64,000 nt of DNA from Actinomycetota bacterium (GTDB lineage: Bacteria; Actinomycetota; JAHEXW01), in the NCBI GenBank assembly GCA_041658625.1, contig JBAZZW010000002.1, forward strand, positions 538,851-602,850. The letters run 5' to 3'. Shown here in pieces: positions 18,147 through 64,000 of this stretch. The first letter of the stretch is position 1, and every line of letters starts with the position of its first letter. A program made the translations under genes and the position numbers. Under the pieces are notes generated by a model. The model made no database searches, was not told the DNA's origin, and saw only the letters and a program-made list of their open reading frames with translations.

Positions 18147-18471
18147 TATGATCAGCAAATATATTTGGCCCCTCACCTCAATCCTCTCCCCGGAGGGGAG
18201 AGGCAGTAACAAAACTCGAGCACCTATTCTGCGAGTCAAGACTGAGGGTGGGCGGGAGCCTCGAACATGGGTTTCCTTGAAGTTTTTCGCGCCGCCAGCC
18301 GCCGATTAATATAAAGGATCGAGCATGCGGACATTCCACGACTCGAGCGGAGAGCATTGTTTGCTCGCCGTGGCGACCTGAAACACGGGGTCAGGCCCTA
18401 TCTCATAAGAAGAAAGGGCCTGACCCCATAGCACTAACGATGGTAGGCCGCGAGCGGCATGCTCGTCTATT

Positions 18472-18933
18472 TTACCGGCGGGTTGTGCTTAGTGTTTTGT
18501 ATTCTTTTTGCGAGATGAGGCGGCGGGAGTGGGCTTCTTTGAGAATCCAGCGGGAGTCGTTGACTTCCAGGTCGGCGGACATTAGGTCTTCCCTCGCCCG
18601 CCGGTCGTCTGTGATAAGCGTGTATAGGTGGGTTAAGGCAAGAGCGGCGGAGTCGCGCTCGCCGGCGTGCATGAAATCGGTTTTGTATTCGGCAATCACG
18701 CGATCCTCGGCGGGGCTTACGTCAATTGTGCGGATCCTTCCGGCGGCGAGGTCGCGAGTGAAATCTTCTTTCCCGGGACCGAAGCCGTGGTACTCAAACT
18801 CTCGTTTGACCCGCTCGGCAACTGTTATGCCGCCTAATACGCGGTGGAGAATGTCAGGCCGGCCCAGATGGCAGTAGAACTTCATTAAGACGTCGGTATC
18901 GACGATATATCCGTTCTGAGTCATTTTACTCAA
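18472..18933 (-). CDS. PIN-like domain protein (putative nuclease/toxin)
   Basis: 153 aa; YIVDTDVLM N-terminal strand and GERDSAALALTH...LITDD acidic motifs. Confidence 0.45.
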   Translation of the reverse strand: MSKMTQNGYIVDTDVLMKFYCHLGRPDILHRVLGGITVAERVKREFEYHGFGPGKEDFTRDLAAGRIRTIDVSPAEDRVIAEYKTDFMHAGERDSAALALTHLYTLITDDRRAREDLMSADLEVNDSRWILKEAHSRRLISQKEYKTLSTTRR

Positions 18934-52806: not shown

Positions 52807-53745
52807 TTGGAAGCGACAGTCGAAGCCGGTCAGAGACCGCCTCTGGCCAAAGTGTTGTTCCTGGAGACAAGGCCGCAGTTCTTAACTCTTATCCCCTGCG
52901 TGCTAACCCCGGGCGTCGCGCTGGCTTATGCCGGCGGGCATTTTAACTGGGCGCATTTAATTCTTGCGCTGATCGGTTCGTTGTTGGTACACATATCGGT
53001 TAACGTACTGAATGACTATACCGACTGGGTGCGCGGTACTGACAAACTGGTCCAAAGGACGCCTTTCTCGGGCGGCAGCGGATTAATCAAGGCCGGCATG
53101 ATTTCCCCGCGAATGGTGCTTATTGAAGGCGTTGCTGCTTTATGTTTGTCCCTTGTAATCGGCATCTATTTTGTGTATCTGTATCCGGTCCTCTTATGGT
53201 TCGTGGTAGGCGGTGCATTGCTGACCGTGTTCTACACGCCGGTGTTGACCAAGACTGTCATCACGGAGATCTTCCCGGGCTTAGGTTTCGGCGTCATCCC
53301 CGTTATCGGCGCTTACATCGTAATGCAGCCGGTCGGCAAGGTCGCGATTACCCCGGAAGTCATCTGGCTTAGCATCCCCGCCACCATCCTCGTGTCGGGA
53401 CTCCTTTGGATAAACGAGATTCCCGACATCCAGGCGGACAAGGCCACCGGTCGGCGTCACGCGGTCCTGTTGATGGGCACACAGAAAGCCGCTTGGGGTT
53501 ACGTCGCTTTGTTGGTCATGACCTACGTCTCGATAGTAACGCCGATCGCCCTGGGCATCCTGCCTGTCTGGTGTCTGGCAGGCTTATTGACCATACCCCT
53601 GGCCGTAAAAGCCGGAACCGGCGCGGTCAAGAACCACGACAGCATCGAGGGCATAACCCCGGCGCTCGGCCAGAACATTTTAACCGTTCTCGCCACTCCG
53701 GTGCTATTGGCCATCGGCTTGGTTGTCTCCAAACTGGTCGGATAA
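52807..53745 (+). CDS. UbiA-family prenyltransferase (MenA-like)
   Basis: 312 aa; NVLNDYTDWVRGTD Asp-rich motif, about 8 TM helices. Confidence 0.8.
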   Translation: MEATVEAGQRPPLAKVLFLETRPQFLTLIPCVLTPGVALAYAGGHFNWAHLILALIGSLLVHISVNVLNDYTDWVRGTDKLVQRTPFSGGSGLIKAGMISPRMVLIEGVAALCLSLVIGIYFVYLYPVLLWFVVGGALLTVFYTPVLTKTVITEIFPGLGFGVIPVIGAYIVMQPVGKVAITPEVIWLSIPATILVSGLLWINEIPDIQADKATGRRHAVLLMGTQKAAWGYVALLVMTYVSIVTPIALGILPVWCLAGLLTIPLAVKAGTGAVKNHDSIEGITPALGQNILTVLATPVLLAIGLVVSKLVG

Positions 53746-53845
53746 GTTTCACAGTATATTCACAAACGGTTCACGGGATATTCTTGTGAGCCCTTGATAA
53801 TGGGCATTAGAGGTAGCCAAGGCTACCCCGCCCATCAGACAAAAG

Positions 53846-53886
53846 AAAAAGAGCAGGATAACAGACCACCTGCTCTTTTTCTTTTA
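53846..53886 (+). terminator. rho-independent terminator candidate after UbiA-family gene
   Basis: AAAAAGAGCAGG / CCTGCTCTTTTT inverted repeat with 12-nt loop, followed by CTTTT. Confidence 0.5.
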
Positions 53887-53955
53887 GCTGAAACTCCTAC
53901 TATGATACAATCATTACAAACATTTCGACCTTACCCGAATATCGAGAGACGGCAA

Positions 53956-56172
53956 ATGCCAAAAGTCAGTATAGTCATAACGTGTCATAACCATGGACGG
54001 TTTTTACCATTTGCGATAAAGAGCGCGATCTCGCAGACATATAAGGACTTTGAAGTTATTGCCGTGGATGATGGGTCCACCGACAATACAGCCGCTGTTT
54101 TAGTGAAATATGAAAACGACCCGCGATTCACAATAATACACCAGGAAAGAAAAGGACCTGCGTCGGCTCGTAACCTCGCCATTGAGCAGGCAAACGGCGA
54201 TTTCATCCTGCCCCTGGACGCAGACGATATTATAGAAAAGAACATGCTCGAAGAAACCGTGCCGGTTCTGGAGAAGAATCCAGATCTTGGTGTTGCATAC
54301 ACCCAATGGAAGACTTTTGGCGATGTCATCAAATTGGTTTTGCCAATCGAGTACAACTTTTTGGTCCTCGCCTATCATGCCAACTTCATTCCCGGGTGCT
54401 CGCTTTATCGTAAACAAGCCTGGAAAGAAGCTGGCGGATACAACACTGATATGGAATATGGAGGTGAGGCCTGGGATCTATTTGTCAGAATGGGCGAAAA
54501 AGGTTGGTGTGGTGGGTTAGTGTCTAAGACACTATTAATGACTAGAATCCATTCAGAATCAATGCAGGGTTTATCTGACAAGCATAAACAAGACATAATC
54601 AACCAGGTTGTCGCGAATAACAAAGACGTATACTCAAAGAATGTCGAAGCGAAAGACTGGTTTGAGGCAAAGCAACTAGCCCGTGAAAACAGATATCCAT
54701 TTTCTGATGTACCAATACCCGAGCTTAACGATGTATTAATAAAAAACTTGGCTTGGCCGAAACCTGCGAGTGCTCCAAAGGTCAGCATTATTATCCCCTG
54801 TTATAACCAGGCCGACCTGCTTGATGAGGCAGTTAATAGCGCTCTATGCCAAACCTATCAGTCGTTTGAGATCGTGATCGTCAATGACGGCTCAACGGAT
54901 AACATTGGTGAAGCGCTAAAGAAACATGCAAATAATCCAAAAATACATATCATCAACCAGGAGAATCAAGGAGTGGCAAGTGCAAGAAACAATGCAATTC
55001 TGACAGCTGGGGGCGAGTATATTTTGCCTCTTGATGCCGACGATATGATTGAACCTACATACCTCGAAAAGACAGTTGCCTCCCTCGACGCAGAAGAAAA
55101 AGCTGGAATTGCGTATACATACATTAAGTTCTTTGGCAACGCAGAAAGAGAAATACAACAAATTGACTTTGATTTCATGGTTCTGGCCTATCATGGTAAT
55201 TTTATGACATGCACATCTTTGTTTAGAAAGACAGCCTGGGAAGATGCGGGTGGCTATAACCCAAACATGAGGTATGGATATGAAGATTGGGATCTATGGC
55301 TTGGAATTTCCGAACGGGGTTGGGGTGTTACATTTGTGAAGGAACCACTGATCCACTATCGCCAGACTGAAACATCCAGGTCTGATGAAGCACACAGACA
55401 TCTCCCTGAGCTATACCGCCAGCTGATTGCGAATCACCCTATCACGTACGCTCAACCTCTTGCCGAGAAGAAATGGCTACGCTTTGTGAAACAGGTTAGT
55501 GATGAGACGCGTTTTCCTATCGGAAATGCGACATCTCCATGTTTTCAGACCTATATAGATAACATCATTTTTGAACCAGTCGACAAGCCGGATGTAAGCG
55601 TCATCATCACTTGCGATCACCGTGCCAATACAATTATGGAGAGTGTCAGGAGCATCCTTTTCCAGGATTACCGCAGCTTCGAGATAATAATCGTTGATCT
55701 AGGAATAGCTGGAGACGCTAAGGGTGAGCTTGAAAAGCTAAAAGCAAATCCACGTGTTGCGATCATTGATGCGACTTTTTCGAGAGACTTGATATCATCT
55801 ACCAGCAAAGCAGTTTCAGGAGCGCGAGGTAAGTATATATTGATGCTGAGTAATGGTGATGTAGTACACAAAACATTGCTTAGTAAAGCAACGCGAGAGT
55901 TCAATAAAAGAACCAAACTAGGCATTGTCTATGCGAATGAACAAGAACGCAATGGAGAAGAGGCTGCAAGAAAAATCCAGTATAGCTACGCTGCCCTAAA
56001 GCGCCAAAATTATATTGGGCGACACGCAGTTTTTAGCAAGCATGCCTGGCTGGAAGCGGGCGGCTTTAAGAAGGAGACTCTGAATCCTGACATTCTATGG
56101 GGCCTATGGCTAAGAATGGGCGACCTTGGCTGGGCGGGGAAATTGATTGATGAACCCCTGGTGCTTCAATAA
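53956..56172 (+). CDS. multi-domain family 2 glycosyltransferase (three tandem GT-A domains)
   Basis: Start at ATG 53956 (MPKVSIVITCHNHGRFL), downstream of the terminator; GT2 signatures at SIVITCHN...VIAVDDGSTD, SIIIPCYN...IVIVNDGSTD and SVIITCDH...IIIVDLG. Confidence 0.8.
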   Translation: MPKVSIVITCHNHGRFLPFAIKSAISQTYKDFEVIAVDDGSTDNTAAVLVKYENDPRFTIIHQERKGPASARNLAIEQANGDFILPLDADDIIEKNMLEETVPVLEKNPDLGVAYTQWKTFGDVIKLVLPIEYNFLVLAYHANFIPGCSLYRKQAWKEAGGYNTDMEYGGEAWDLFVRMGEKGWCGGLVSKTLLMTRIHSESMQGLSDKHKQDIINQVVANNKDVYSKNVEAKDWFEAKQLARENRYPFSDVPIPELNDVLIKNLAWPKPASAPKVSIIIPCYNQADLLDEAVNSALCQTYQSFEIVIVNDGSTDNIGEALKKHANNPKIHIINQENQGVASARNNAILTAGGEYILPLDADDMIEPTYLEKTVASLDAEEKAGIAYTYIKFFGNAEREIQQIDFDFMVLAYHGNFMTCTSLFRKTAWEDAGGYNPNMRYGYEDWDLWLGISERGWGVTFVKEPLIHYRQTETSRSDEAHRHLPELYRQLIANHPITYAQPLAEKKWLRFVKQVSDETRFPIGNATSPCFQTYIDNIIFEPVDKPDVSVIITCDHRANTIMESVRSILFQDYRSFEIIIVDLGIAGDAKGELEKLKANPRVAIIDATFSRDLISSTSKAVSGARGKYILMLSNGDVVHKTLLSKATREFNKRTKLGIVYANEQERNGEEAARKIQYSYAALKRQNYIGRHAVFSKHAWLEAGGFKKETLNPDILWGLWLRMGDLGWAGKLIDEPLVLQ

Positions 56173-56175
56173 CTA

Positions 56176-56838
56176 TTACTTTCGTACTTTTCGTGCAACA
56201 ATGCAGGCTACAGCTTGGACATAGCCATTTGAAACAGAATCAATATCGAGCAAGTCTGTTTTTGTTGCCGGAATCCAGTGGAGCCTTTCTAGGCCTTTAA
56301 AATACTTTTCTTTTTCTATTGTGAATCCATCAAGCAACGATACCAGCGCTTCATCGTCATATACTCTATACCAACTTGATTGCATCCTTCTCCCAAACGG
56401 GATAGTCAGAATGAACATACCATCGTTTGTTAAAACTCGGCTTATCTCTTGAACTACCTTAAAGTCACCATTGCTAAGAGGCTCTTCTCCATAGGCGCCA
56501 AGTCCGCAGTGCTCAATTGCTGAAACTGCACTTACAACGTCGAAAGAACCGCTTTGAAAGGAGTCTTTCAGAAAATCGCCTTTTACGAATTCGAAGTTTG
56601 GATGCTTAAGATCGTAATCTGTTAAGTCAACTCCTACTACTCTATGCCCCAGACTTGCTAGTTCAATAGGAAGTCGGCTTCTAGCGCAACCAAAGTCAAG
56701 AATCCGCAATTCCTGATTGCTCGGAATATTTTGAAAAACGAATGGAATCTCGACAATTCTTTCATTTGTAAGAAGTTGATCTGAAGGACCATCGTAATAT
56801 ATTGACTCTTCAAAAAGGGATTTTAGGTCTTTATCCAT
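56176..56838 (-). CDS. class I SAM-dependent methyltransferase
   Basis: 220 aa; motif I ILDFGCARSRLPIELASLGHRVVGVD. Confidence 0.75.
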   Translation of the reverse strand: MDKDLKSLFEESIYYDGPSDQLLTNERIVEIPFVFQNIPSNQELRILDFGCARSRLPIELASLGHRVVGVDLTDYDLKHPNFEFVKGDFLKDSFQSGSFDVVSAVSAIEHCGLGAYGEEPLSNGDFKVVQEISRVLTNDGMFILTIPFGRRMQSSWYRVYDDEALVSLLDGFTIEKEKYFKGLERLHWIPATKTDLLDIDSVSNGYVQAVACIVARKVRK

Positions 56839-56958
56839 GCTCCAAACTTAATATAGCAAACAGTGGCTGTCAACATAGCTTGTAAGAAATGTTACTTTTA
56901 TGGATAATTGAAAGTAATTTCATGTCAGCGCGTTGATCTCTTTATTTGGGTATGTTCA

Positions 56959-59355
56959 ATGACGAGAAAAGGAAAAAAGAGGCTAAATCTTGGGTGTGGG
57001 CCGGATATCAGAGAGGGCTTTATAAATGTTGACGCACGGTCACTTCCCGGCGTCGATCTAGTTTCTGATGTAAGGAAGCTGCCTTTCCCTAAATCAAGTA
57101 TTTCGGAAATTGTCGCTATCGATGTACTTGAACATTTGTCTAGACTTGAAGCGCCTGAGGCGCTTAGATATTGGGTTTCACTTCTAACCAAAGAAGGATC
57201 GATCTTTGTTCAATCACCAGATATCCGATTGCTAGCAGAGGTTATTGAAGATGACGATGAGCTTTCGCGAAGACTATACGGGGATCAGGATTATCCCGAG
57301 AATCTCCATAAAAGTGGGTTCACTTTATCGCGTCTTAGGGAATTATTAGAAGCTGAAGGCTTGAAGATCGTAAAAGGAACTTATATTAATGGGAATTTTA
57401 GAATTTGGGCTACCTATCCACGCTCAAGAATAAAAAAATGTCTTTGTCTCGGCAAAACCGATCCATACCCATCAGGTCAGATTCCAGATGAAACGCTAAT
57501 AGTTGAAGGACTAAAAGATAATGGGATCGATGTTGATTTCTATGATTATAAAGATTTCGACCCAGAATTAACTGATATCTACGATTTTGCACTACTAATT
57601 TATCATTACGACATTCCTCTTCAAGGGTATCGTTATCTTCTGGATCAAGTCGTTGCTGACAAGACCGCACTAATGACATTTGACTGGGTTCTATCTGAGG
57701 CGAGAAGAACTGGGTTTCTAGAGGTGGCGAGACTCTTCGACATTGTTTTTACAACAGACGATGTTGTTGACTGGCGTTCCTTGGGAGTGAACCAGGCAAC
57801 AATTCGACAAGGAGTTAGTTCACCTCATAAGCGCGGTCACAAGAGAAACGATCTCGATTTTGATATAGCGTTCATCGGCGGCCTAAATGACTCAAGCAGG
57901 GTTGAAAACCTTAGAACGATTATGAAGAAATATAAGGTCGCTCATTTTGATAATCAGGTAAATCAAGAATTTAGTTCCATCTATATGGGGCCTGCTCACA
58001 ATGAAAGGTTCTGTGATATATGCAGTTCAGCAAAAATCATTCTGGGCGGCGGTTTCCCTGAAACTACGAAGGGTTACTGGTCAAATCGTGTTTACATGGT
58101 CCTTGGATGTGGGGGATTCTTCCTTTCGCCATATGTTGAAGGTATGGAGAGCGAATTTGAAGATAAAAAGCACCTGGTTTTTTTTCGCTCAGAATCTGAA
58201 CTAGAAAAGAATGTTCAGTACTATCTAAAGAATGATGCCGAAAGGGAAAACATAGCTAGAAACGGAAGAGCGCTTGTGCATCAAGAGTATTCATACAAAA
58301 AGCGAACTAGAAGTTTGGTTAAAGAGATAAACGAAATGCGGCGCAAAATCGGTCTTGTGTCATACACTGAACGACAAAGCGGATTAGGCATTATGGCAAA
58401 TGAGCTAGTTGACAGCTTGAATATAACAAACATCCTATCGATAGACTCTGCCAAGGGGAAACGAGAAACTTGGAGAGAAAACCAAGTTAATGCCAACAAT
58501 CCACCGGATCAAGAATCCATATTTGAGTTTTTGTCACAGAATTTTAAGGTCCTACTCTTGCTGGAGACGCCGTTTAATCAACATATTCCGTATGTGGCAA
58601 AAAAAGCAGGCAAAAAGGTAGTCTGCTATGTTCACCATGAGTGGTTGCCACTAGATGCACCGTGGCTGCAATACGTTGATCTATTCTTGTGTCCAAATAG
58701 TATTGCCGAAGAGAAAATGAATAGTTATGTAAGAAAACAAGTCAATTGGCCAATCAATCTTTCCCAATATGAGTTTAAAAAAAGAGAGGGTCATGTCTTT
58801 ATACATAATGCTGGATATATTGGACCCTTTAATAGAAAAGGAACAGCTGATGTAATACAAGCTTTCTGTGCATCAAAGGCAGGAAAGCTGATTCTAAGAA
58901 GCCAAATCCCTCTAGAACAAGAGATTGATTTGGATCTTGTAAAAATGGCAAGAGATGATAGTCGTATAGATATCAGAATTGGCGCGCTTGATAACTATCA
59001 GGACTTGTTTAGCGAAGGTGACATTGCGTTACAGCCTAGCCGTTTTGAAGGATATGGGAGAGCAATAGCTGAGGCTATGGCTTCAGGCTTGGTAGTTGTA
59101 ACAACAGATGCTCCACCCATGAAGGACTTTGTCGGAGATTCTAAGCTTCTAGTCAAAGTGTCTTCAGAACAACCATTAAGATCCGGCCCATTTGACGCTA
59201 TATCATATGTACCAGACATAGATTCGATGACAGAGATAATTGATTCTTTGTCAAGATCAAGTGATATTGGAAAGTTTAGTCTCGAGGCCAGAGAGAGAAT
59301 TGAGTCAGGATATAGCCGGTGGGACAAAATAATTGAAATACTACAAAATGTCTAG
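56959..59355 (+). CDS. fusion protein: N-terminal SAM-dependent methyltransferase + central and C-terminal glycosyltransferase (GT1/GT4-like) domains
   Basis: Start at ATG 56959 (MTRKGKKRLNLGCGPD); MTase motif LNLGCGPD...AIDVLEHL; C-terminal EGYGRAIAEAMASGLVVVTTD typical of GT4. Confidence 0.7.
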   Translation: MTRKGKKRLNLGCGPDIREGFINVDARSLPGVDLVSDVRKLPFPKSSISEIVAIDVLEHLSRLEAPEALRYWVSLLTKEGSIFVQSPDIRLLAEVIEDDDELSRRLYGDQDYPENLHKSGFTLSRLRELLEAEGLKIVKGTYINGNFRIWATYPRSRIKKCLCLGKTDPYPSGQIPDETLIVEGLKDNGIDVDFYDYKDFDPELTDIYDFALLIYHYDIPLQGYRYLLDQVVADKTALMTFDWVLSEARRTGFLEVARLFDIVFTTDDVVDWRSLGVNQATIRQGVSSPHKRGHKRNDLDFDIAFIGGLNDSSRVENLRTIMKKYKVAHFDNQVNQEFSSIYMGPAHNERFCDICSSAKIILGGGFPETTKGYWSNRVYMVLGCGGFFLSPYVEGMESEFEDKKHLVFFRSESELEKNVQYYLKNDAERENIARNGRALVHQEYSYKKRTRSLVKEINEMRRKIGLVSYTERQSGLGIMANELVDSLNITNILSIDSAKGKRETWRENQVNANNPPDQESIFEFLSQNFKVLLLLETPFNQHIPYVAKKAGKKVVCYVHHEWLPLDAPWLQYVDLFLCPNSIAEEKMNSYVRKQVNWPINLSQYEFKKREGHVFIHNAGYIGPFNRKGTADVIQAFCASKAGKLILRSQIPLEQEIDLDLVKMARDDSRIDIRIGALDNYQDLFSEGDIALQPSRFEGYGRAIAEAMASGLVVVTTDAPPMKDFVGDSKLLVKVSSEQPLRSGPFDAISYVPDIDSMTEIIDSLSRSSDIGKFSLEARERIESGYSRWDKIIEILQNV

Positions 59356-59392
59356 AAACTCACCGGTATTTAAAAGCCAAGTTCTCTTGTTG

Positions 59393-59402
59393 CCCCCCCC
59401 CC
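59393..59402. repeat. homopolymeric C10 tract about 40 bp upstream of the hicB -10 box (TATAAT at 59441..59446)
   Basis: Read directly; a second tract C8T8 at 59889..59904 follows hicA. Confidence 0.6.
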
Positions 59403-59453: not shown

Positions 59454-59675
59454 ATGAAGAGCACATTTACTGCTGTTTTCGAGAAAACGGACGATTGGTA
59501 TATCGGCTATGTCGAAGAACTTCCTGGTGCCAACTCACAGGGAAAAACTCTTAACGAGGCGCGCGAAAACCTAAAGGAAGCTATAGAGCTTACCCTCAAA
59601 TCTAACCGCGAGATTGCCGAACGCGGCCTAACGGGCAAAAAGGTAATCAGGGAATCCATTCAGATAGCCGTCTAA
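59454..59675 (+). CDS. hicB: HicB-family antitoxin
   Basis: 73 aa; FEKTDDWYIGYVEELPGANSQGKTLNEARENLKEAIEL resembles HicB/UPF0150; -10 box only 7 nt upstream of ATG (leaderless-like). Confidence 0.65.
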   Translation: MKSTFTAVFEKTDDWYIGYVEELPGANSQGKTLNEARENLKEAIELTLKSNREIAERGLTGKKVIRESIQIAV

Positions 59676-59864
59676 ATGAAAAGGCGCGCTCTGCTAGCCC
59701 ATCTTAAGAAGCACAACTGCGTCCTGTTAAGACAAGGCGCACGTCATTCTGTGTTCATCAACACCGCGAACAATAAAGTCTCGACCGTCCCCCGACATTC
59801 TGAGATTGTCGATCTTCTTGCTAAGAAGATTTGTCGCGACCTCGAAATCCCCGCCCCTCTATAA
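59676..59864 (+). CDS. hicA: HicA-family toxin (mRNA interferase)
   Basis: 62 aa; LKKHNCVLLRQGARHSVFIN...HSEIVDLLAKKICRDL fits HicA/YcfA-like fold; start abuts hicB stop. Confidence 0.7.
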   Translation: MKRRALLAHLKKHNCVLLRQGARHSVFINTANNKVSTVPRHSEIVDLLAKKICRDLEIPAPL

Positions 59865-59988
59865 AAACATACCCTCTCCACTCAAGAACCCCCCCCTTTT
59901 TTTTGAGCTCGCAAAATATTCTTCGAGCGAGCGCTAATTACGAGCTTGCCCTGAGCTAGTCGAAGGGTCGAGAAGGGAGGGCGCCGCT

Positions 59989-60159
59989 CGCTGGACAAAC
60001 CCGGCTATGCTCTTTAATATTGTTTAAGTGCGAATACGGGTGATTAGCTCAGGGGGGAGAGCGCTTCCCCTGACACGAAACTCGTGTACCATGCCCAAGC
60101 CCCATCTCATCTGCAGGTATAACACTCTTTTGGAATCCGCCGTCGCTATGTAAGTGCAC
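59989..60159 (+). repeat. ~170-bp direct repeat, copy 1 (contains tRNA D-arm-like TAGCTCAGGGGGGAGAGCGC)
   Basis: Aligned by eye with copy 2 at 62542..62710; high identity over most of its length with a few indels. Confidence 0.6.
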
Positions 60160-60333
60160 AAAAAGCGAGCAATTGGAAGTTTGTCAATTGGAAGATTCCG
60201 AATCAGGCTTCTTTTTCGTTGCCGCTTCTTCTTCCTCGCGTTCCCATTTGGGCTTGATTCAATTCGGGACCTTGAACATCGTGAAGATTGCTAGGAAGAC
60301 GACAACTTGCCAATCTTAGTCTTGGATATTGCC

Positions 60334-60657
60334 TTAGACTACACGCTTGTAATATTTGAAACTCCCTCCAGTTGAAAGTATTGACCCCATCCAAGTACGT
60401 CGGTCGATTCCTGCTAATTCTTCATCACTTCTTGATGCCAAGTCGTCATACATCGCATAACCGAACAAAAATAGATACGATAACCCAAAACCGGCTGTAA
60501 ACGCAAACAAAGTAAAGAAAAGTGTTTCTATTGCGTCAGTTTTGTTCATCGCCATGAGAATTAAGACCACAGCAGCAATAATTGATGCTACGATGAGCGA
60601 GATTGTTCTCACGCGCTTTTGGAGTTTGCTGATTTTCATATTCGTATCATATTTCAT
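60334..60657 (-). CDS. small two-TM membrane protein, immunity-like (downstream of RHS remnant)
   Basis: 107 aa; start overlaps the RHS-fragment stop by 4 nt; two hydrophobic helices. Confidence 0.45.
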   Translation of the reverse strand: MKYDTNMKISKLQKRVRTISLIVASIIAAVVLILMAMNKTDAIETLFFTLFAFTAGFGLSYLFLFGYAMYDDLASRSDEELAGIDRRTWMGSILSTGGSFKYYKRVV

Positions 60658-61023
60658 ATTGCCCTAGTCTTCCCTTTATAATCCACACCTCGGCCGTTAC
60701 CGTGAATTGCAGAGGAGTTATTCCCGCAATAGAGATAAGGATTGAGCGCCAACCTGTCCGTCGCCTGCTGCGGCATAGCGTCCCGGGAGATGAACCTGCC
60801 GGTCGCAGGATTGTAATACCTGGCGTTTAAGTAATACATCCCGGTCTTGTTACCTGGGGTCAGGCCCTGTCGCTTAAGAGGAGAGGGCCTGACCCCAAAG
60901 CCGACCCAATGGATTCCCGAAGGTGCCTGTCGCAACGATATTCTTGGCTGTCAAGTTGCTTCCGTCCCAGACCCAGGCATATTCCGTCGGGTTCCCCCGG
61001 GCGTCATAAGCCCAGCTCCGTCA
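60654..61023 (-). pseudogene. RHS/YD-repeat protein C-terminal remnant (frameshifted), ending in a short C-terminal tip
   Basis: ORF 60654..60935 encodes MYYLNARYYNPATGRFISRD...NPYLYCGNN (RHS core end); upstream a different frame encodes YDARGNPTEYAWVWDGSNLTAKNIVATG; no intact N-terminal RHS body. Confidence 0.55.
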
Positions 61024-61202
61024 TGGCGTCATCCTGGGCTCCGTGTCTTCTAGGAGCGCAGGAACTCAGACGCTGCTATTCATTCAAGTATAATCGTGCC
61101 CTGAGAGTCAAGACCTTGCCGCCAAGACATCCCCATGATTATTCAAAACACAATAATGAGTGATCCAGTACTTGACTTTTCACATGCAATATTGCATTAT
61201 GA

Positions 61203-62453
61203 ATGCAATGCTGTAAAAAGGAGACGCGCGTGCCTAAGCATTATATAGAACGAACAATTGAGCCTTTACTGTTGCGATCGTCGCAAGAGTCACCCGCCAT
61301 CGTTCTGACCGGCCCCAGACAGTCAGGCAAAACGACGCTCCTTAAGCATGTCTTCTCCAAAACTCATCGATATATTTCCCTTGATCTGCCGGACGTCGCA
61401 GCGTCGGCGACCGCCGACCCGCGAGGTTTCCTCGATATAAATCGTCCGCCGGTAATCTTCGACGAGATCCAGTATGTACCCGGACTCCTTCCTTATATAA
61501 AAGAGCTTGTCGACGCAGACAGGCAGAGTATGGGCCGGTTCATTCTTACGGGTTCACAGAACTTGATGTTGCTCAACAGCGTGACCGAGACTCTAGCCGG
61601 GCGAGCCGCACTCTTGCGTCTCCTGCCTCTCTCATATAACGAGGCGCTCGGTCGTCCGTTGACTTCTCTGCCGTGGGAGTCGAAAAAGAGCCATGAGATC
61701 TTGCCTGAGCTTACGCATTCCAACCTCTACCAGAAGCTCATCATCGGGTCTTTTCCGGAACTCGTTGCCACTCCTAAATCCGATCCGACAATCTGGCAAG
61801 GCAGCTATATCCAAACATATCTTGAACGCGACGTGAGAAGCTTAAGACATATCGGCGATTTGTCGACCTTCCAGAACTTCTTGCGGGTCATCGCAGCGCG
61901 CTCGGGTCAGCTGTTCCAGCTTGCTGATGTATCTCGCGACCTGGGTGTCGCTTTCAACACGGCTAAGCAATGGCTCTCCATTCTGGAAGCCACCTACCAG
62001 GTCGTGGTCGTACGACCGTATTTCGAGAACGTAGGTAAACGGCTTGTCAAAACGCCGAAGGTTTACTACCTCGATACAGGGCTCTTGGCATATCTAGCGC
62101 AGATACGCGACGCGGATCAAGCATCTACAGGCCCTTTCAGCGGTGCGTTCTTTGAGACTGCGGTCTTGGCCGAGCTTACCAAGAGCTATGTTCACAGAGG
62201 GAAAGAGGCCCGGATCTTCTTCTGGCGCACAGCGGCCGGCAAAGAAGTCGATTTCGTGATAGAGGTCGGCGGGACATTGATTCCGATTGAGGTCAAAGCA
62301 TCAGCAACCCCGCGCCCAGAGATGACGACTGGCTTGCGTTCATTTATGGAAGACTACAGCCCTAGGGCAAACAAAGGTTATGTCGTACACCCGGGCAATA
62401 TCCGACTACCGCTCGCGCCGGACATCGAAGCCTTACCGTTCGCCCTTCTGTGA
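61203..62453 (+). CDS. AAA+ ATPase with C-terminal DUF4143-like domain
   Basis: 416 aa; Walker A LTGPRQSGKTTLL, Walker B VIFDEIQ, C-terminal region typical of this ATPase family. Confidence 0.7.
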   Translation: MQCCKKETRVPKHYIERTIEPLLLRSSQESPAIVLTGPRQSGKTTLLKHVFSKTHRYISLDLPDVAASATADPRGFLDINRPPVIFDEIQYVPGLLPYIKELVDADRQSMGRFILTGSQNLMLLNSVTETLAGRAALLRLLPLSYNEALGRPLTSLPWESKKSHEILPELTHSNLYQKLIIGSFPELVATPKSDPTIWQGSYIQTYLERDVRSLRHIGDLSTFQNFLRVIAARSGQLFQLADVSRDLGVAFNTAKQWLSILEATYQVVVVRPYFENVGKRLVKTPKVYYLDTGLLAYLAQIRDADQASTGPFSGAFFETAVLAELTKSYVHRGKEARIFFWRTAAGKEVDFVIEVGGTLIPIEVKASATPRPEMTTGLRSFMEDYSPRANKGYVVHPGNIRLPLAPDIEALPFALL

Positions 62454-62541
62454 CGACTCTTTGGCTTATCTTAAAAGTTCACTTCGATTTGGGGAATATC
62501 TTATAGATTTCTGACACCGCTATGTTCGCGAAGGATTTGCC

Positions 62542-62710
62542 CGCTGGACAAACAAGCCTATGCTCTTTAATATTGTTTAAGTGCGATTACGGGTGATTAG
62601 CTCAGGGGGAGAGCGCTTCCCTGACACGGAATTCGTACACTGACTTCATTCCCCTTCCCATCTGCAGGTATAACACTCTCTGGGAATATATAGCGCGTCC
62701 GTAAGTGCAC
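62542..62710 (+). repeat. ~170-bp direct repeat, copy 2
   Basis: Aligned by eye with 59989..60159; followed at 62738..62793 by a tail element that also occurs at about 5925..5980. Confidence 0.6.
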
Positions 62711-62909
62711 CGTAAGTGCTATTGAGGTAACAAAAAAGCTGGCTTCCCGGGTTATACGTTTTTCGCACACTTAGGATTTTGCATAAAGCCAGCTGAGAGT
62801 GGCTTCTTGTTGCATACGGGGGCGTAGATCACGCAAATCCGGGCGCCGACGCCGTAAAAACCTTACGCTTCACAACCTGGCCTTATAGGCAAGAAAGGGC
62901 ATTTAAACG

Positions 62910-63887
62910 TTACTGTGACTTCTTGATAAATTCTCGAATTGGCTCAAACTGTTGATAGTCAAAAGCCGCAATATGATAAGGCAATGCGCTCAAGGAGCTA
63001 CATGAATCGTCTAAATGGTTCTCCACATAAGAATTTATTAACATATCTAAAGTGTCATCCATGTTGACGACATCCATGTAGTACGGATCAAGTTCCTTAC
63101 CCGTTTCATAGATATTCAAAAACCGCCCCTTCGAGTCAACGTGATTAGCGTAGAAAGCACCTATACCTATTTTGGCAGCTGAAATCTTCTCGTAACGGTC
63201 CTTGAATCCTCCGAACACCCGTGGCTCCAGATGCCGAAACTTCCATATTCGAAATTCCCCGGTTTTCATTGTTAAATCTCTCAATTCTGCAACTATTTTG
63301 AGGAATCCTTCGCGAGTCCTTTCTGAAAAAGCCTTAATAATAGTTCCCGATTCTTCTCTTTTGACAATATCATCCGGAGCAATAACGTTCGTCCTTGAAA
63401 AGACAGATTGTGTAATATCATCTATCAATAGACAACACGTTTTCAGGTATTCCGGATTGTCAGTCGAGTGTCGAAAAACATCTGAGATTCCTGGGATCAA
63501 ATCATATATATATCCAAGCTCCTCACTTTTCTCAACACAAGCATCGATCAATTCAAGCATATTTGTGTCGCTTAGGTTTGAATGAATGACTAGCTTCATA
63601 GCGTCCCAATGACCTTCGTAGTCTGAAAAAAGACAGAGTCCACGTAAGAACCAAGACTCCTTGATGTTTGGATTTTCATCAATGATTTCTTCCAAGATCG
63701 CATTGGCCTTTTTGAAGTCTCCGAACGACATATAGGTTCTGGCTATATCAATATTCCTGCCACCCTTTTTTGTGGCCGAGTCAAACTCAAGTGCTGAATC
63801 ACAATAGGGGCATCTTGTTATACTGGCATTCGATGCTGGATCGAGTTGACCACCACAGCTGGGGCAGGAAAGCTTTCGTACCTCCAT
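62910..63887 (-). CDS. hypothetical protein with N-terminal zinc-ribbon (CPSCGG...CPYC) and helical (TPR-like) region
   Basis: 325 aa; AT-rich gene; no family recognised. Confidence 0.5.
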   Translation of the reverse strand: MEVRKLSCPSCGGQLDPASNASITRCPYCDSALEFDSATKKGGRNIDIARTYMSFGDFKKANAILEEIIDENPNIKESWFLRGLCLFSDYEGHWDAMKLVIHSNLSDTNMLELIDACVEKSEELGYIYDLIPGISDVFRHSTDNPEYLKTCCLLIDDITQSVFSRTNVIAPDDIVKREESGTIIKAFSERTREGFLKIVAELRDLTMKTGEFRIWKFRHLEPRVFGGFKDRYEKISAAKIGIGAFYANHVDSKGRFLNIYETGKELDPYYMDVVNMDDTLDMLINSYVENHLDDSCSSLSALPYHIAAFDYQQFEPIREFIKKSQ

Positions 63888-64000
63888 TGTCGTCTCCTAT
63901 CACAACCCACTTCACGGGAATCCGGACTTCTGGCTTATCCCCTTTTGGGGAATCTCACCTTAAGAGCCGATTAAGCTGGCTCCGCAATCATTGCAGAACT

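Follow-up and report, generated by a model that had tools for sequence, protein, structure and literature searches.

The locus is most probably the decayed relic of an RHS-type polymorphic toxin/immunity array that still carries a candidate orphan immunity gene. In the window, by which we mean the whole 64-kb stretch of DNA from an Actinomycetota metagenome-assembled genome that was analyzed, an RHS pseudogene remnant occupies 61161-60717 on the minus strand and corresponds to ~150 C-terminal codons of an RHS protein. It is followed on the same strand by an intact ORF of 107 aa ("TM107") and by a fragment of a second membrane-protein gene. The features of the remnant and of the DNA directly after it are as follows:

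61120-61161, minus strand: RHS remnant piece A, the upstream limit of RHS homology, THYCVLNNHGDVLA (tblastn with the relative P0004)
61018-61119, minus strand: noncoding spacer of 102 nt that interrupts the remnant and has four in-frame stops (30 nt in relatives)
60910-61017, minus strand: RHS remnant piece B, the last YD-type repeat, SWAYDARGNPTEYAWVWDGSNLTAKNIVATGTFGNP (tblastn, P0004 residues 159-195)
60849-60909, minus strand: replaced stretch, 61 nt in place of the relatives' 30 nt ("YLYAGYFYDV")
60717-60848, minus strand: RHS remnant piece C, the RHS repeat-associated core, KTGMYYLNARYYNPATGRFISRDAMPQQATDRLALNPYLYCGNN (TIGR03696)
60658-60716, minus strand: tail after the core, in frame, SSAIHGNGRGVDYKGKTRAI (the relatives' alignments stop at residue 74)
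60334-60657, minus strand: intact 107-aa ORF TM107, candidate orphan immunity gene (ORF, ATGA overlap, and transmembrane prediction)
60193-60309, minus strand: remains of a second immunity-like membrane-protein gene, now a pseudogene fragment (tblastn with TM116 of locus L005)

What identifies the remnant as RHS? The core motifs "RYYNPATGRF" and "NPYLYCGNN," which a first-pass annotation of this DNA had pointed out, are indeed present on the minus strand, both in the frame of a 93-aa ORF (60935-60654) whose RHS-homologous part is 60848-60717. The NCBIfam profile TIGR03696 (Rhs_assc_core) matches residues 23-74 of this ORF with 50.8 bits (E 1.7e-13, cutoff 32.5), bearing out the RHS homology that had been read from the motifs. 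The core is recognized by NCBIfam alone, Pfam-A profiles giving 0 matches on both RHS pieces. A word-indexed homology search with the 93-aa ORF returned no matches; an exhaustive HMMER search found the core instead, in 11,363 RHS-core proteins at E<=1e-3, the best of which (P0002-P0004) are 59-62% identical. Gene callers left the 93-aa ORF uncalled in the ENA and JGI records. The YD-type piece, also noted at the outset, lies in the other frame (61017-60910), and tblastn with P0004 links pieces A, B, and C across both frames (E 1e-29), with A and B in one gapped high-scoring segment pair (46% identity, 85 aligned columns). Piece A, whose translation was verified, aligns to P0004 residues 135-148, TFYYLTNAHGDVLA, with a BLOSUM62 score of 45; no other 14-mer in the six frames of the 64-kb window scores 30 or more. 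Piece B, likewise verified in translation, is 83% identical in DNA to L004 6475-6584. Piece C is 59-77% identical to P0002-P0004 and to the RHS533 protein of L004, and its DNA is 78-80% identical to L005. The subfamily to which the remnant belongs is intact in two uncultured genomes, as short RHS proteins. The remnant's upstream edge, at 61161, lies farther upstream than the first-pass annotation had placed it and 68 nt from a divergent ATPase gene. A reading of "HDGAG" in the third frame as RHS homology was rejected, as it overlaps the far stronger "SWAYD" reading.

Between the pieces the coding sequence is broken. The spacer 61018-61119 translates as ARS*LSGHDYT*MNSSV*VPALLEDTEPRMTP*R, and a 45-nt motif within it (61072-61028) is 80% identical to L005 578-621, with weaker similarity over ~130 nt; in L005, too, the motif stands upstream of a 5'-truncated RHS fragment. 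Because the replaced stretch 60849-60909 adds a net 31 nt relative to the 30 nt of P0004, P0005, and P0007, the frame changes between pieces B and C; DNA homology to L005 picks up again at AGACCGGGATG. Four in-frame stops, at least one frameshift, the insertion of a hairpin repeat, and the decay of its cleavage motif make the RHS piece a dead, non-functional pseudogene, and the suggestion that it could supply a toxin tip by recombination falls with it.

The toxin itself is missing. The TIGR03696 alignment spans profile positions 20-67 of 76; the PxxxxDPxGL boundary/cleavage motif is therefore absent in frame and the core is incomplete. RHS homology ends at "GNN," 19 codons ahead of the stop, and the in-frame sequence at the expected core end reads NNSSAIHGNGRG. 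In the +1 frame the tail reads "TPLQFTVTAE...", which, compared with "TPLRYTDASGE" of L040, is a decayed PxxxxDPxG motif with D, P, and G all replaced. Past the point where the homology ends, relatives continue with NNPxxxxDPSG and then with a toxin domain of ~150-430 aa (median 191 aa), and D.xG occurs within 20 aa in 110 of the 125 core motifs among the best RHS matches. A tblastn search with full-length P0004 and the L005 cassettes found no C-terminal (CT) domain match anywhere in the window; in P0002-P0004, no Pfam toxin domain was found. Rather than a continuous ORF from YD-repeat shell through core to toxin, there are two frames, four stops, and no toxin domain. Because there is no toxin, the locus is not the toxin/immunity cassette it had been taken for. 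In both the remnant and the unrelated RHS gene of L040, one additional T follows "GNN" and precedes the P of the core-end motif. That this T is no coincidence and marks a +1 frameshift switch, recurrent or programmed, where shell and toxin meet is highly improbable; its sequence context, AAYAACTCCTCTGCNATNCACGG, had no match in viral contigs.

The closest relatives, L004 and L005, are orphan RHS-CT cassette arrays with membrane proteins, which upholds the proposed origin in a polymorphic toxin locus. The L005 array runs TM116 / CT320 / TM107 / CT356 / TM157 / CT382 and that of L004 RHS533-TM202-RHS534-TM145, each RHS C-terminal cassette being followed by a small, low-GC membrane protein. The membrane-protein genes in these arrays have a GC content of 37-43%, against 53-55.5% for the toxin (RHS) genes, and the downstream gene is also lower in GC in 10/10 distant loci for which one was reported. 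The window shows a matching step, from 54.6% in the RHS remnant to 39.5% in the 107-aa ORF, and this supports reading the ORF as an immunity gene.

How well does the 107-aa ORF fit that role? It is a small same-strand ORF directly downstream of the remnant (60657-60334), where immunity genes sit, and the two frames overlap by 4 nt, the ATG of the ORF running into the stop of the remnant (ATGA; GCA ATA TGA / ATG AAA). The overlap that had been noted is thus real, and it may be a relic of an old toxin/immunity junction. The "translational coupling" drawn from it has no functional meaning, the upstream frame being an untranslated pseudogene. All pipelines call the ORF as a gene and differ in its start: an alternative start at 60639 gives the 101 aa that NCBI annotates. 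Its Shine-Dalgarno signal is weak, and its length is reached by 0.4% of shuffles. The predicted two-transmembrane topology was recovered, with hydrophobic segments at residues 19-37 and 46-68 after a basic N terminus, and the AlphaFold (AF2) model is a helical hairpin (helices 5-36 and 40-74; pLDDT 86-92 in the transmembrane region). Among 5.8 billion protein clusters the only match to the 107-aa protein was its own cluster, made up of itself and the 101-aa NCBI version. It showed no similarity to the membrane proteins of L004-L018 and L040 or to the C-terminal domains of the 150 best RHS matches, and PADLOC gave no match. Weak matches to SLATT_1, Ac110, and similar families were rejected as compositional noise. 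Because no homologue was found, the immunity reading rests on position, composition, and analogy: Of the first description as immunity-like, the position stood, and the role itself is a candidate one suggested by the context.

Directly after the 107-aa ORF, just beyond the stretch that the first-pass annotation covered, lies the last third of an L005 TM116-type gene, with an in-frame stop (60309-60193; QVVVFLAIFTMFKVPN*IKPKWEREEEEAATKKKPDSES). In tblastn it matches residues 76-114 of L005 TM116 with 26/39 identical residues (67%, E 2e-14); a word-indexed search with L005 TM116 returned no matches. Homology to an immunity gene that is paired elsewhere was thus found for this fragment and not for the 107-aa ORF.

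Could the locus be a silent but usable orphan toxin/immunity cassette, its short tip and cognate immunity gene ready to be swapped onto a full-length rhs by recombination through the core? Some 130 nt of core-coding DNA are kept at 78-80% identity to relatives, the small ORF is joined by ATGA, true orphan arrays exist in this RHS subfamily, and orphans activated by recombination are known, according to one report (PMC3967940). The missing toxin domain, with 19 codons after "GNN" in place of 150-430 aa, largely refutes this reading, and the boundary motif lost in frame and decayed in +1, the stops, frameshift, and repeat insertion in the fragment, and the absence of an rhs partner from the 64 kb leave it very improbable. 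More improbable still is a leftover of the toxin itself, in which the 107-aa ORF would be an RHS C-terminal domain that inserts into membranes and is now translated from an ATG within it. Several relatives (e.g., P0008, P0017, and P0028) do have transmembrane-like hydrophobic segments right after DPxG, and the ORF begins only ~20 codons past the core end; however, its frame differs from those of the core and of the +1-frame motif, a stop stands two codons before its ATG, its GC content of 39.5% is like that of immunity genes and unlike the 53-55.5% of toxin genes, and it resembles none of the C-terminal domains among the 150 best RHS matches.

It is unlikely, though by a smaller measure, that only the pseudogene is real, the 107-aa ORF being either a non-functional reading frame or the gene of some unrelated small membrane protein in a patchwork island. 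The lack of a homologue or of any family match above noise, the mosaic character of the region, and the disagreement of pipelines on the start (101 vs. 107 aa) speak for this reading. Position, strand, ATGA junction, and GC step nevertheless fit the immunity genes of the relatives' arrays, the other flank of the ORF is a fragment of an array-type membrane protein, a 107-codon frame in 40% GC DNA is improbable by chance (the 0.4% of shuffles), and no pipeline fails to call the gene. An assembly chimera or sequencing artefact, with frameshifts and junctions produced by mis-assembled RHS repeats, has a negligible probability. RHS loci are repeat-rich and often mis-assembled, and the relative L040 is full of frameshifts; but three further, separately deposited assemblies (ENA ERZ27249422, Logan SRR8449812, and JGI Ga0265296) are 99.99-100% identical over the whole locus, and the artefact that had been named as a possible refutation is thereby set aside.

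The remaining features of the neighborhood are repeats and a divergent gene:

60851-60896, no strand assigned: hairpin repeat GGGGTCAGGCCCT-N15-AGGGCCTGACCCC (60856-60896) with flanking AAAGC (multicopy palindromic repeat)
61230-62453, plus strand: divergent AAA_14/DUF4143 ATPase, candidate anti-phage gene (Pfam PF13173 and PF13635)
59986-60175, plus strand: direct repeat copy 1, ~185 nt (86% identity to copy 2)
62539-62725, plus strand: direct repeat copy 2 (Rfam tRNA 23.6 bits, below the gathering score of 29; this copy only)

The hairpin repeat, which is specific to this genome and lies within the replaced stretch, is a 41-nt palindrome with a 13-bp stem, 46 nt with its AAAGC flank, and its RNA folds with -35.3 kcal/mol (z -3.8). 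A second copy in the window stands at 18387-18427 (four arm matches, where 0.09 would be expected). JGI contigs carry at least 23 more distinct copies, which makes at least 25 distinct copies overall, one of the 26 matches listed duplicating the window locus; the 46 nt are up to 93% identical to the L025/L027 copies. Several of the JGI contigs with copies probably stem from this population or from a close relative of it. None of the copies lies in an open frame of more than ~200 aa, and many are embedded in a larger composite repeat of ~165 nt; neither the hairpin nor the ~165-nt repeat has an Rfam family. Multicopy, a short imperfect palindrome, and mainly intergenic, the hairpin has the properties of a REP-like repeat, and we take it to resemble repetitive extragenic palindromes of the REP/BIME type. 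The copy in the remnant differs from those in sitting inside former coding sequence. A reading of the hairpin itself as RHS coding sequence ("PLKRQG" in register with "PLRFQG" of RHS chains in the PDB) was rejected, since these 41-46 nt turn up again more than 24 times in unrelated surroundings. In ~170 kb around the hairpin copies on JGI metagenome contigs, the only RHS sequence was the locus itself.

The surroundings are patched together from blocks rich in AT and blocks rich in GC and contain HicAB, a defense-candidate ATPase, and repeats. The ATPase (PADLOC candidate PDC-S01, E 7.9e-115; start taken from the 407-aa gene call in L001) is context and not part of the RHS relic; it occupies the expected place of the RHS body. 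No other RHS core motif is present in the 64-kb window, in agreement with the early remark that an upstream RHS body is lacking. A scan of a collection of genome contigs for an intact rhs returned only Firmicutes/CPR loci at 38-53% identity, with both the source genome and the two close relatives absent from the results. The direct repeats bound a 2.55-kb segment that contains the RHS relic. In copy 1, TGGACA-17-TAATAT resembles a promoter, and a tRNA-Val(GAC)-like sequence is represented by its 5' two-thirds. The repeats consist of the 5' tRNA-like part and the sequence upstream of it, whereas att sites usually have the 3' part, and the repeats have no Rfam family of their own. They were rejected as tRNA genes: ARAGORN predicted 0 genes even at relaxed thresholds, and the Rfam tRNA score is below the gathering score.

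How does the locus compare with known systems? Orphan rhs-CT/rhsI modules are known, and in some of them the rhs sequence that is left contains in-frame stops (Poole 2011, PMC3150448). In Enterobacteriaceae they lie downstream of rhs genes as "silent cassettes" (Jackson 2009, cited in PMC5361080; Poole 2011; Koskiniemi 2014, PMC3967940), and recombination can activate them, as reported in the last of these papers. As in those modules, the window has a 5'-truncated rhs fragment with core-coding DNA (pieces A-C), then a small same-strand ORF, and in-frame stops within the retained rhs sequence; L005, a close relative of the remnant, forms arrays of exactly this type. In contrast to them, the window locus has no intact variable CT region after DPxGL. 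It has lost that toxin region and the PxxxxDPxGL boundary and hence holds no module to displace or activate. It also differs in that no main rhs gene lies within the 64 kb, the host is an actinomycetotal rather than a proteobacterial genome, and the rhs fragment is further disrupted by the hairpin repeat. Effector displacement leaves orphan immunity genes in Vibrio cholerae type VI secretion (T6SS) clusters (PMC5361080), and orphan immunity is also found in Serratia Rhs systems (PMC10539506). There, too, a gene in the immunity position stands without its effector beside remnants of old effector/immunity pairs, and the benefit proposed is the one we propose here, protection from non-self toxins. 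Those genes are recognizably homologous to paired ones in other strains, however, and the 107-aa ORF has no homologue; only the fragment 60309-60193 resembles them in this respect. The L004/L005 arrays look like immunity genes of the TsaI type. Such genes follow the toxin gene directly, frequently as a series of copies that differ from one another, and their products are small membrane proteins, bitopic or polytopic. TsaI, as described in PMC9484751, is a membrane-protein immunity factor against the T7SS toxin TspA of Staphylococcus aureus; there is no sequence relationship between TsaI/TspA and the window locus.

If the locus is a decayed array, it would have begun as an orphan rhs-CT/immunity array or as the end of a main rhs locus and would have lost its toxin-coding segments through deletions. 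One deletion may have removed the DNA that lay between the core-end motif and the start codon of the immunity gene, and another may have begun just past the 107-aa gene and ended midway through the immunity gene that came next; at the present site of the ATPase gene, the RHS body would have been displaced or lost. This history is a reconstruction from two relatives and not an observed series. The 107-aa protein would be an orphan immunity protein of the cytoplasmic membrane, an N-in hairpin with a cytoplasmic tail, which might neutralize a membrane-acting RHS C-terminal toxin delivered by neighboring strains. Such protection would explain why the 107-aa ORF alone has stayed open amid the decay. 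We put forward only tentatively, as a possibility that we would not yet favor, that this ORFan is functional and represents a new membrane immunity protein family, retained by selection after the deletion of its own RHS toxin and protecting the population from its neighbors' membrane-acting RHS toxins.

A decayed toxin array with a surviving candidate immunity gene is a known kind of feature and an ordinary outcome for such loci, and beyond correct annotation the locus is of little importance. The RHS piece should be annotated as a pseudogene, since neither "toxin" nor "usable cassette" describes it, and the small membrane ORF as a candidate orphan immunity gene. L004 and L005 provide a few RHS C-terminal domains whose partners are membrane proteins, and the hairpin/~165-nt composite repeat, together with the tRNA-like direct repeats that bracket a segment of conflict genes, may serve a wider study of the lineage. 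The locus itself is a tidy example of the decay of a polymorphic-toxin array in an uncultured actinomycetotal lineage, in which the toxin DNA goes first and the gene in the immunity position stays open.

Does the broken coding sequence at 61161-60717 derive from an RHS gene? RHS core-end motifs had been proposed here in two frames, with a profile scan for the core domain as the check, and that scan was positive: the 93-aa ORF matches the NCBIfam model TIGR03696 (RHS repeat-associated core) at 50.8 bits (E = 1.7e-13; cutoff 32.5). Searched exhaustively with HMMER, 1.84 billion representatives yielded 11,363 matches at E ≤ 1e-3; every match inspected was an RHS-core protein, and PDB RHS/Tc chains also matched weakly. 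The best three, P0002-P0004 (59-62% identity), are encoded in two NCBI assemblies from uncultured bacteria. One of them, P0004, is a short RHS protein (534 aa) to which tblastn aligns both frames in the correct order (combined E = 1e-29), along with an extra upstream piece—THYCVLNNHGDVLA at 61161-61120, opposite TFYYLTNAHGDVLA in P0004. This 14-mer has a BLOSUM62 score of 45; across all six frames of the 64 kb, every other 14-mer stays below 30. The RHS identity of the remnant is thus beyond chance. The RHS pieces had no match in Pfam-A, and the 64-kb window (51.6% GC, without N) contained neither a further RHS core motif nor a tRNA, and nothing in it reached the gathering score of an Rfam family. 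All features of the relic lie on the minus strand and are listed 5' to 3'.

Features of the RHS relic and its downstream gene
61161-61120, minus: piece A, the first
Between pieces A and B, minus: spacer of 102 nt with four in-frame stops (30 nt in relatives)
61017-60910, minus: piece B, the second RHS-like frame, translated SWAYDARGNPTEYAWVWDGSNLTAKNIVATGTFGNP
Between pieces B and C, minus: replaced stretch of 61 nt (30 nt in relatives, 'YLYAGYFYDV')
60935-60654, minus: 93-aa ORF in the frame of piece C, TTG start, including GMYYLNARYYNPATGRFISRDAMPQQATDRLALNPYLYCGNN
60848-60717, minus: piece C, ending 'YCGNN'
60695-60722, minus: extra T between 'GNN' and 'P' of the core-end motif (also at 8640-8684 of L040, the locus of the distant RHS protein P0042)
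3' of piece C, minus: tail of 19 codons, SSAIHGNGRGVDYKGKTRAI, then a stop
60657-60334, minus: 107-aa ORF, its ATG overlapping the stop codon (TGA) of the 93-aa ORF (GCA ATA TGA / ATG AAA)

Pieces B and C are in different frames because the 61-nt stretch amounts to a net gain of 31 nt. A hairpin element, GGGGTCAGGCCCT-N15-AGGGCCTGACCCC plus AAAGC, makes up 46 of these 61 nt. This 41-nt palindrome occurs twice in the window, at 60851-60896 (with AAAGC) and 18387-18427, and JGI metagenome contigs contain at least 23 further distinct copies, the majority on the 968-kb Ga0265292_1000002. Its translation bears a weak in-register likeness to 'PLRFQG' of RHS proteins, which we rejected as coincidental because the hairpin recurs at many other sites. 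Across window 18314-18475 and 60851-60896 and loci L020-L039, most copies form the center of a composite repeat of ~165 nt, whose closing helix, GAGCATGC.../...GCATGCTC, shows a few compensatory changes; four are embedded in another repeat family, and three are adjacent to tRNA genes. Neither hairpin nor composite repeat matched an Rfam family.

The 102-nt spacer holds a 45-nt motif (61072-61028, minus; CGYCTSAGTTCCTGCGCTC...GAGCCCAGGATGAC) that is 80% identical to positions 578-621 of L005, a relative's locus, just before the most truncated cassette there; weaker similarity around it reaches about 130 nt. In both places the motif lies upstream of 5'-truncated RHS fragments, with differing truncation points. 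From sequence similarity, this suggests a common ancestral orphan, already non-coding in its upstream part; the motif may mark a junction inherited by both loci or the terminus of some element.

What became of the toxin? The TIGR03696 match ends at profile position 67 of 76, and nearly all database alignments in the HMMER search end at residue 74. After the core, relatives carry 'NNPxxxxDPSG(H/Y)', followed by a C-terminal domain: among the 150 best matches, D.xG falls within 20 residues in 110 of 125 core motifs, with a median extension of 191 aa, and lengths of 150-430 aa are typical in 13 more distant genomic loci. The window has only 19 codons after the core. Read in the +1 frame, the tail gives 'TPLQFTVTAE...', a decayed PxxxxDPxG in which D, P, and G are all changed, and tblastn with complete relatives detected nothing homologous to their C-terminal domains across the whole window. 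With neither cleavage motif nor payload, the RHS piece is therefore a pseudogene of the shell/core end only, and the locus is very probably a decayed relic without a toxin.

The frame change at the core end has one counterpart among the 150 best matches. P0042, with core identity of only 57%, ends ...GNNSSAIHGCIG and a stop, the +1 frame going on 'TPLRYTDASGE...'; its gene carries the same extra T (AAY AAC [T] CCT CTG) in the identical place, yielding the same peptide, 'NNSSAIHG'. Frameshifts are numerous in this RHS gene, whose sequence may stem from an error-prone long-read assembly; the shared T may be a coincidence, a mutational hotspot, or a regulated switch.

How do intact relatives arrange these genes? 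L004 (GCA_040960625.1) carries the tandem RHS533-TM202-RHS534-TM145, and L005 (GCA_040961035.1) a textbook orphan array of C-terminal cassettes (CT) and small membrane protein genes (TM): TM116, CT320, TM107, CT356, TM157, CT382. All L005 CT fragments start inside the core region, two of them at '...LTAKNQVAVGTFGNP', and a small hydrophobic protein is encoded after each one. RHS/CT genes in these loci have 53-55.5% GC and small membrane genes 37-43%; the window shows the same step, from 54.6% in the remnant to 39.5% in the 107-aa ORF, and the gene after RHS was lower in GC in all 10 distant loci where one was reported. Directly 3' of the 107-aa ORF, a fragment (60309-60193, minus) with an in-frame stop shares 26 of 39 residues (67%, E = 2e-14) with the C-terminal third of L005 TM116. 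The live-looking arrays (L005 1-4948, L004 3690-8051) consist of cassettes with a common glycine-rich stretch (…GINMQNGLRLTGSAAVAMGVGMPG…) and variable tips without a Pfam domain, and after every cassette comes a multi-TM protein gene of low GC. Immediately upstream of the L004 array is a gene for an IS200-type Y1 transposase.

The 107-aa ORF, with its 4-nt ATGA overlap, bears out the two-TM protein of the first-pass annotation: a basic N-terminus (six K/R) precedes hydrophobic segments at 19-37 and 46-68, an 8-residue loop between them, and a 39-aa mixed-charge tail. AlphaFold without an alignment predicts a helical hairpin (helices 5-36 and 40-74, pLDDT 86-92) with a poorly defined tail. An open frame of 107 codons is reached in 0.4% of shuffles of 40% GC DNA; it is called as a gene of 101 aa by NCBI and of 107 aa by ENA, JGI, and Logan. 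The protein forms its own cluster alone among 5.8 billion clusters, matched none of the gathered membrane proteins or RHS C-terminal domains, and gave nothing significant in Pfam, NCBIfam, or PADLOC (a defense-system search). Because no homologue was found, an immunity role is argued from position, strand, junction, composition, and neighbors rather than homology, and we give this candidate immunity gene about an even chance.

Direct repeats of ~185 nt (59986-60175 and 62539-62725; 86% identical) bracket a 2.55-kb segment holding the relic and an ATPase gene, with a toxin-antitoxin pair beyond.

Neighboring genes
61230-62453, plus: AAA_14/DUF4143 ATPase, divergent, at 68 nt from the remnant's upstream edge
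59454-59864, plus: HicB/HicA pair, just beyond the direct repeat

The ATPase matches the PADLOC phage-defense candidate PDC-S01 (E = 7.9e-115), and a HicB-like antitoxin (73 aa; PF21748/PF15919) is followed immediately by a HicA toxin (62 aa; PF07927); the surroundings look like a small conflict-gene island. Each repeat has, in this order, a promoter-like TGGACA-17-TAATAT, the 5' two-thirds of a tRNA-Val(GAC)-like sequence, and conserved blocks CCCATCTGCAGGTATAACACTCT and GTAAGTGCAC; neither was recognized as a tRNA gene by ARAGORN or Rfam. A C8T8 tract (~59888-59905) lies just downstream of HicB/HicA. Composition around the relic is patchy: AT-rich blocks at 53700-59400 and 62900-63900 (36-47% GC vs. 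51.6% overall) code for large glycosyltransferase/methyltransferase fusions and for a zinc-ribbon/TPR-like protein of 325 aa, suggesting that DNA around the relic was gained by horizontal transfer. Three other contigs from separately deposited assemblies are 99.99-100% identical across the locus, ruling out the assembly artifact that had been raised; the locus is genuine.

The locus combines a dead RHS C-terminal remnant, an intact ORF for a small membrane protein where an immunity gene would sit, and a broken second immunity-type gene; relatives have homologous live arrays. Of the toxin/immunity cassette first proposed, the polymorphic-toxin origin and the immunity-position ORF stand; a toxin domain and cleavage motif are absent. 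The ancestor would have been either an orphan array of rhs-CT/immunity pairs or the 3' terminus of a main rhs locus. Deletions would have taken out the segments coding for toxins, together with some of the following immunity gene, and the hairpin would have inserted later into an already dead core. The sole still-open ORF may have been retained as an orphan immunity gene that protects from membrane-acting RHS toxins of neighbors. Orphan rhs-CT/rhsI modules can carry stops in retained rhs sequence (PMC3150448), and orphan immunity genes are a leftover of effector displacement (PMC5361080); the locus agrees with both. Its sole new element is the ORFan candidate immunity protein; decaying loci of polymorphic toxins are a type of feature already known.
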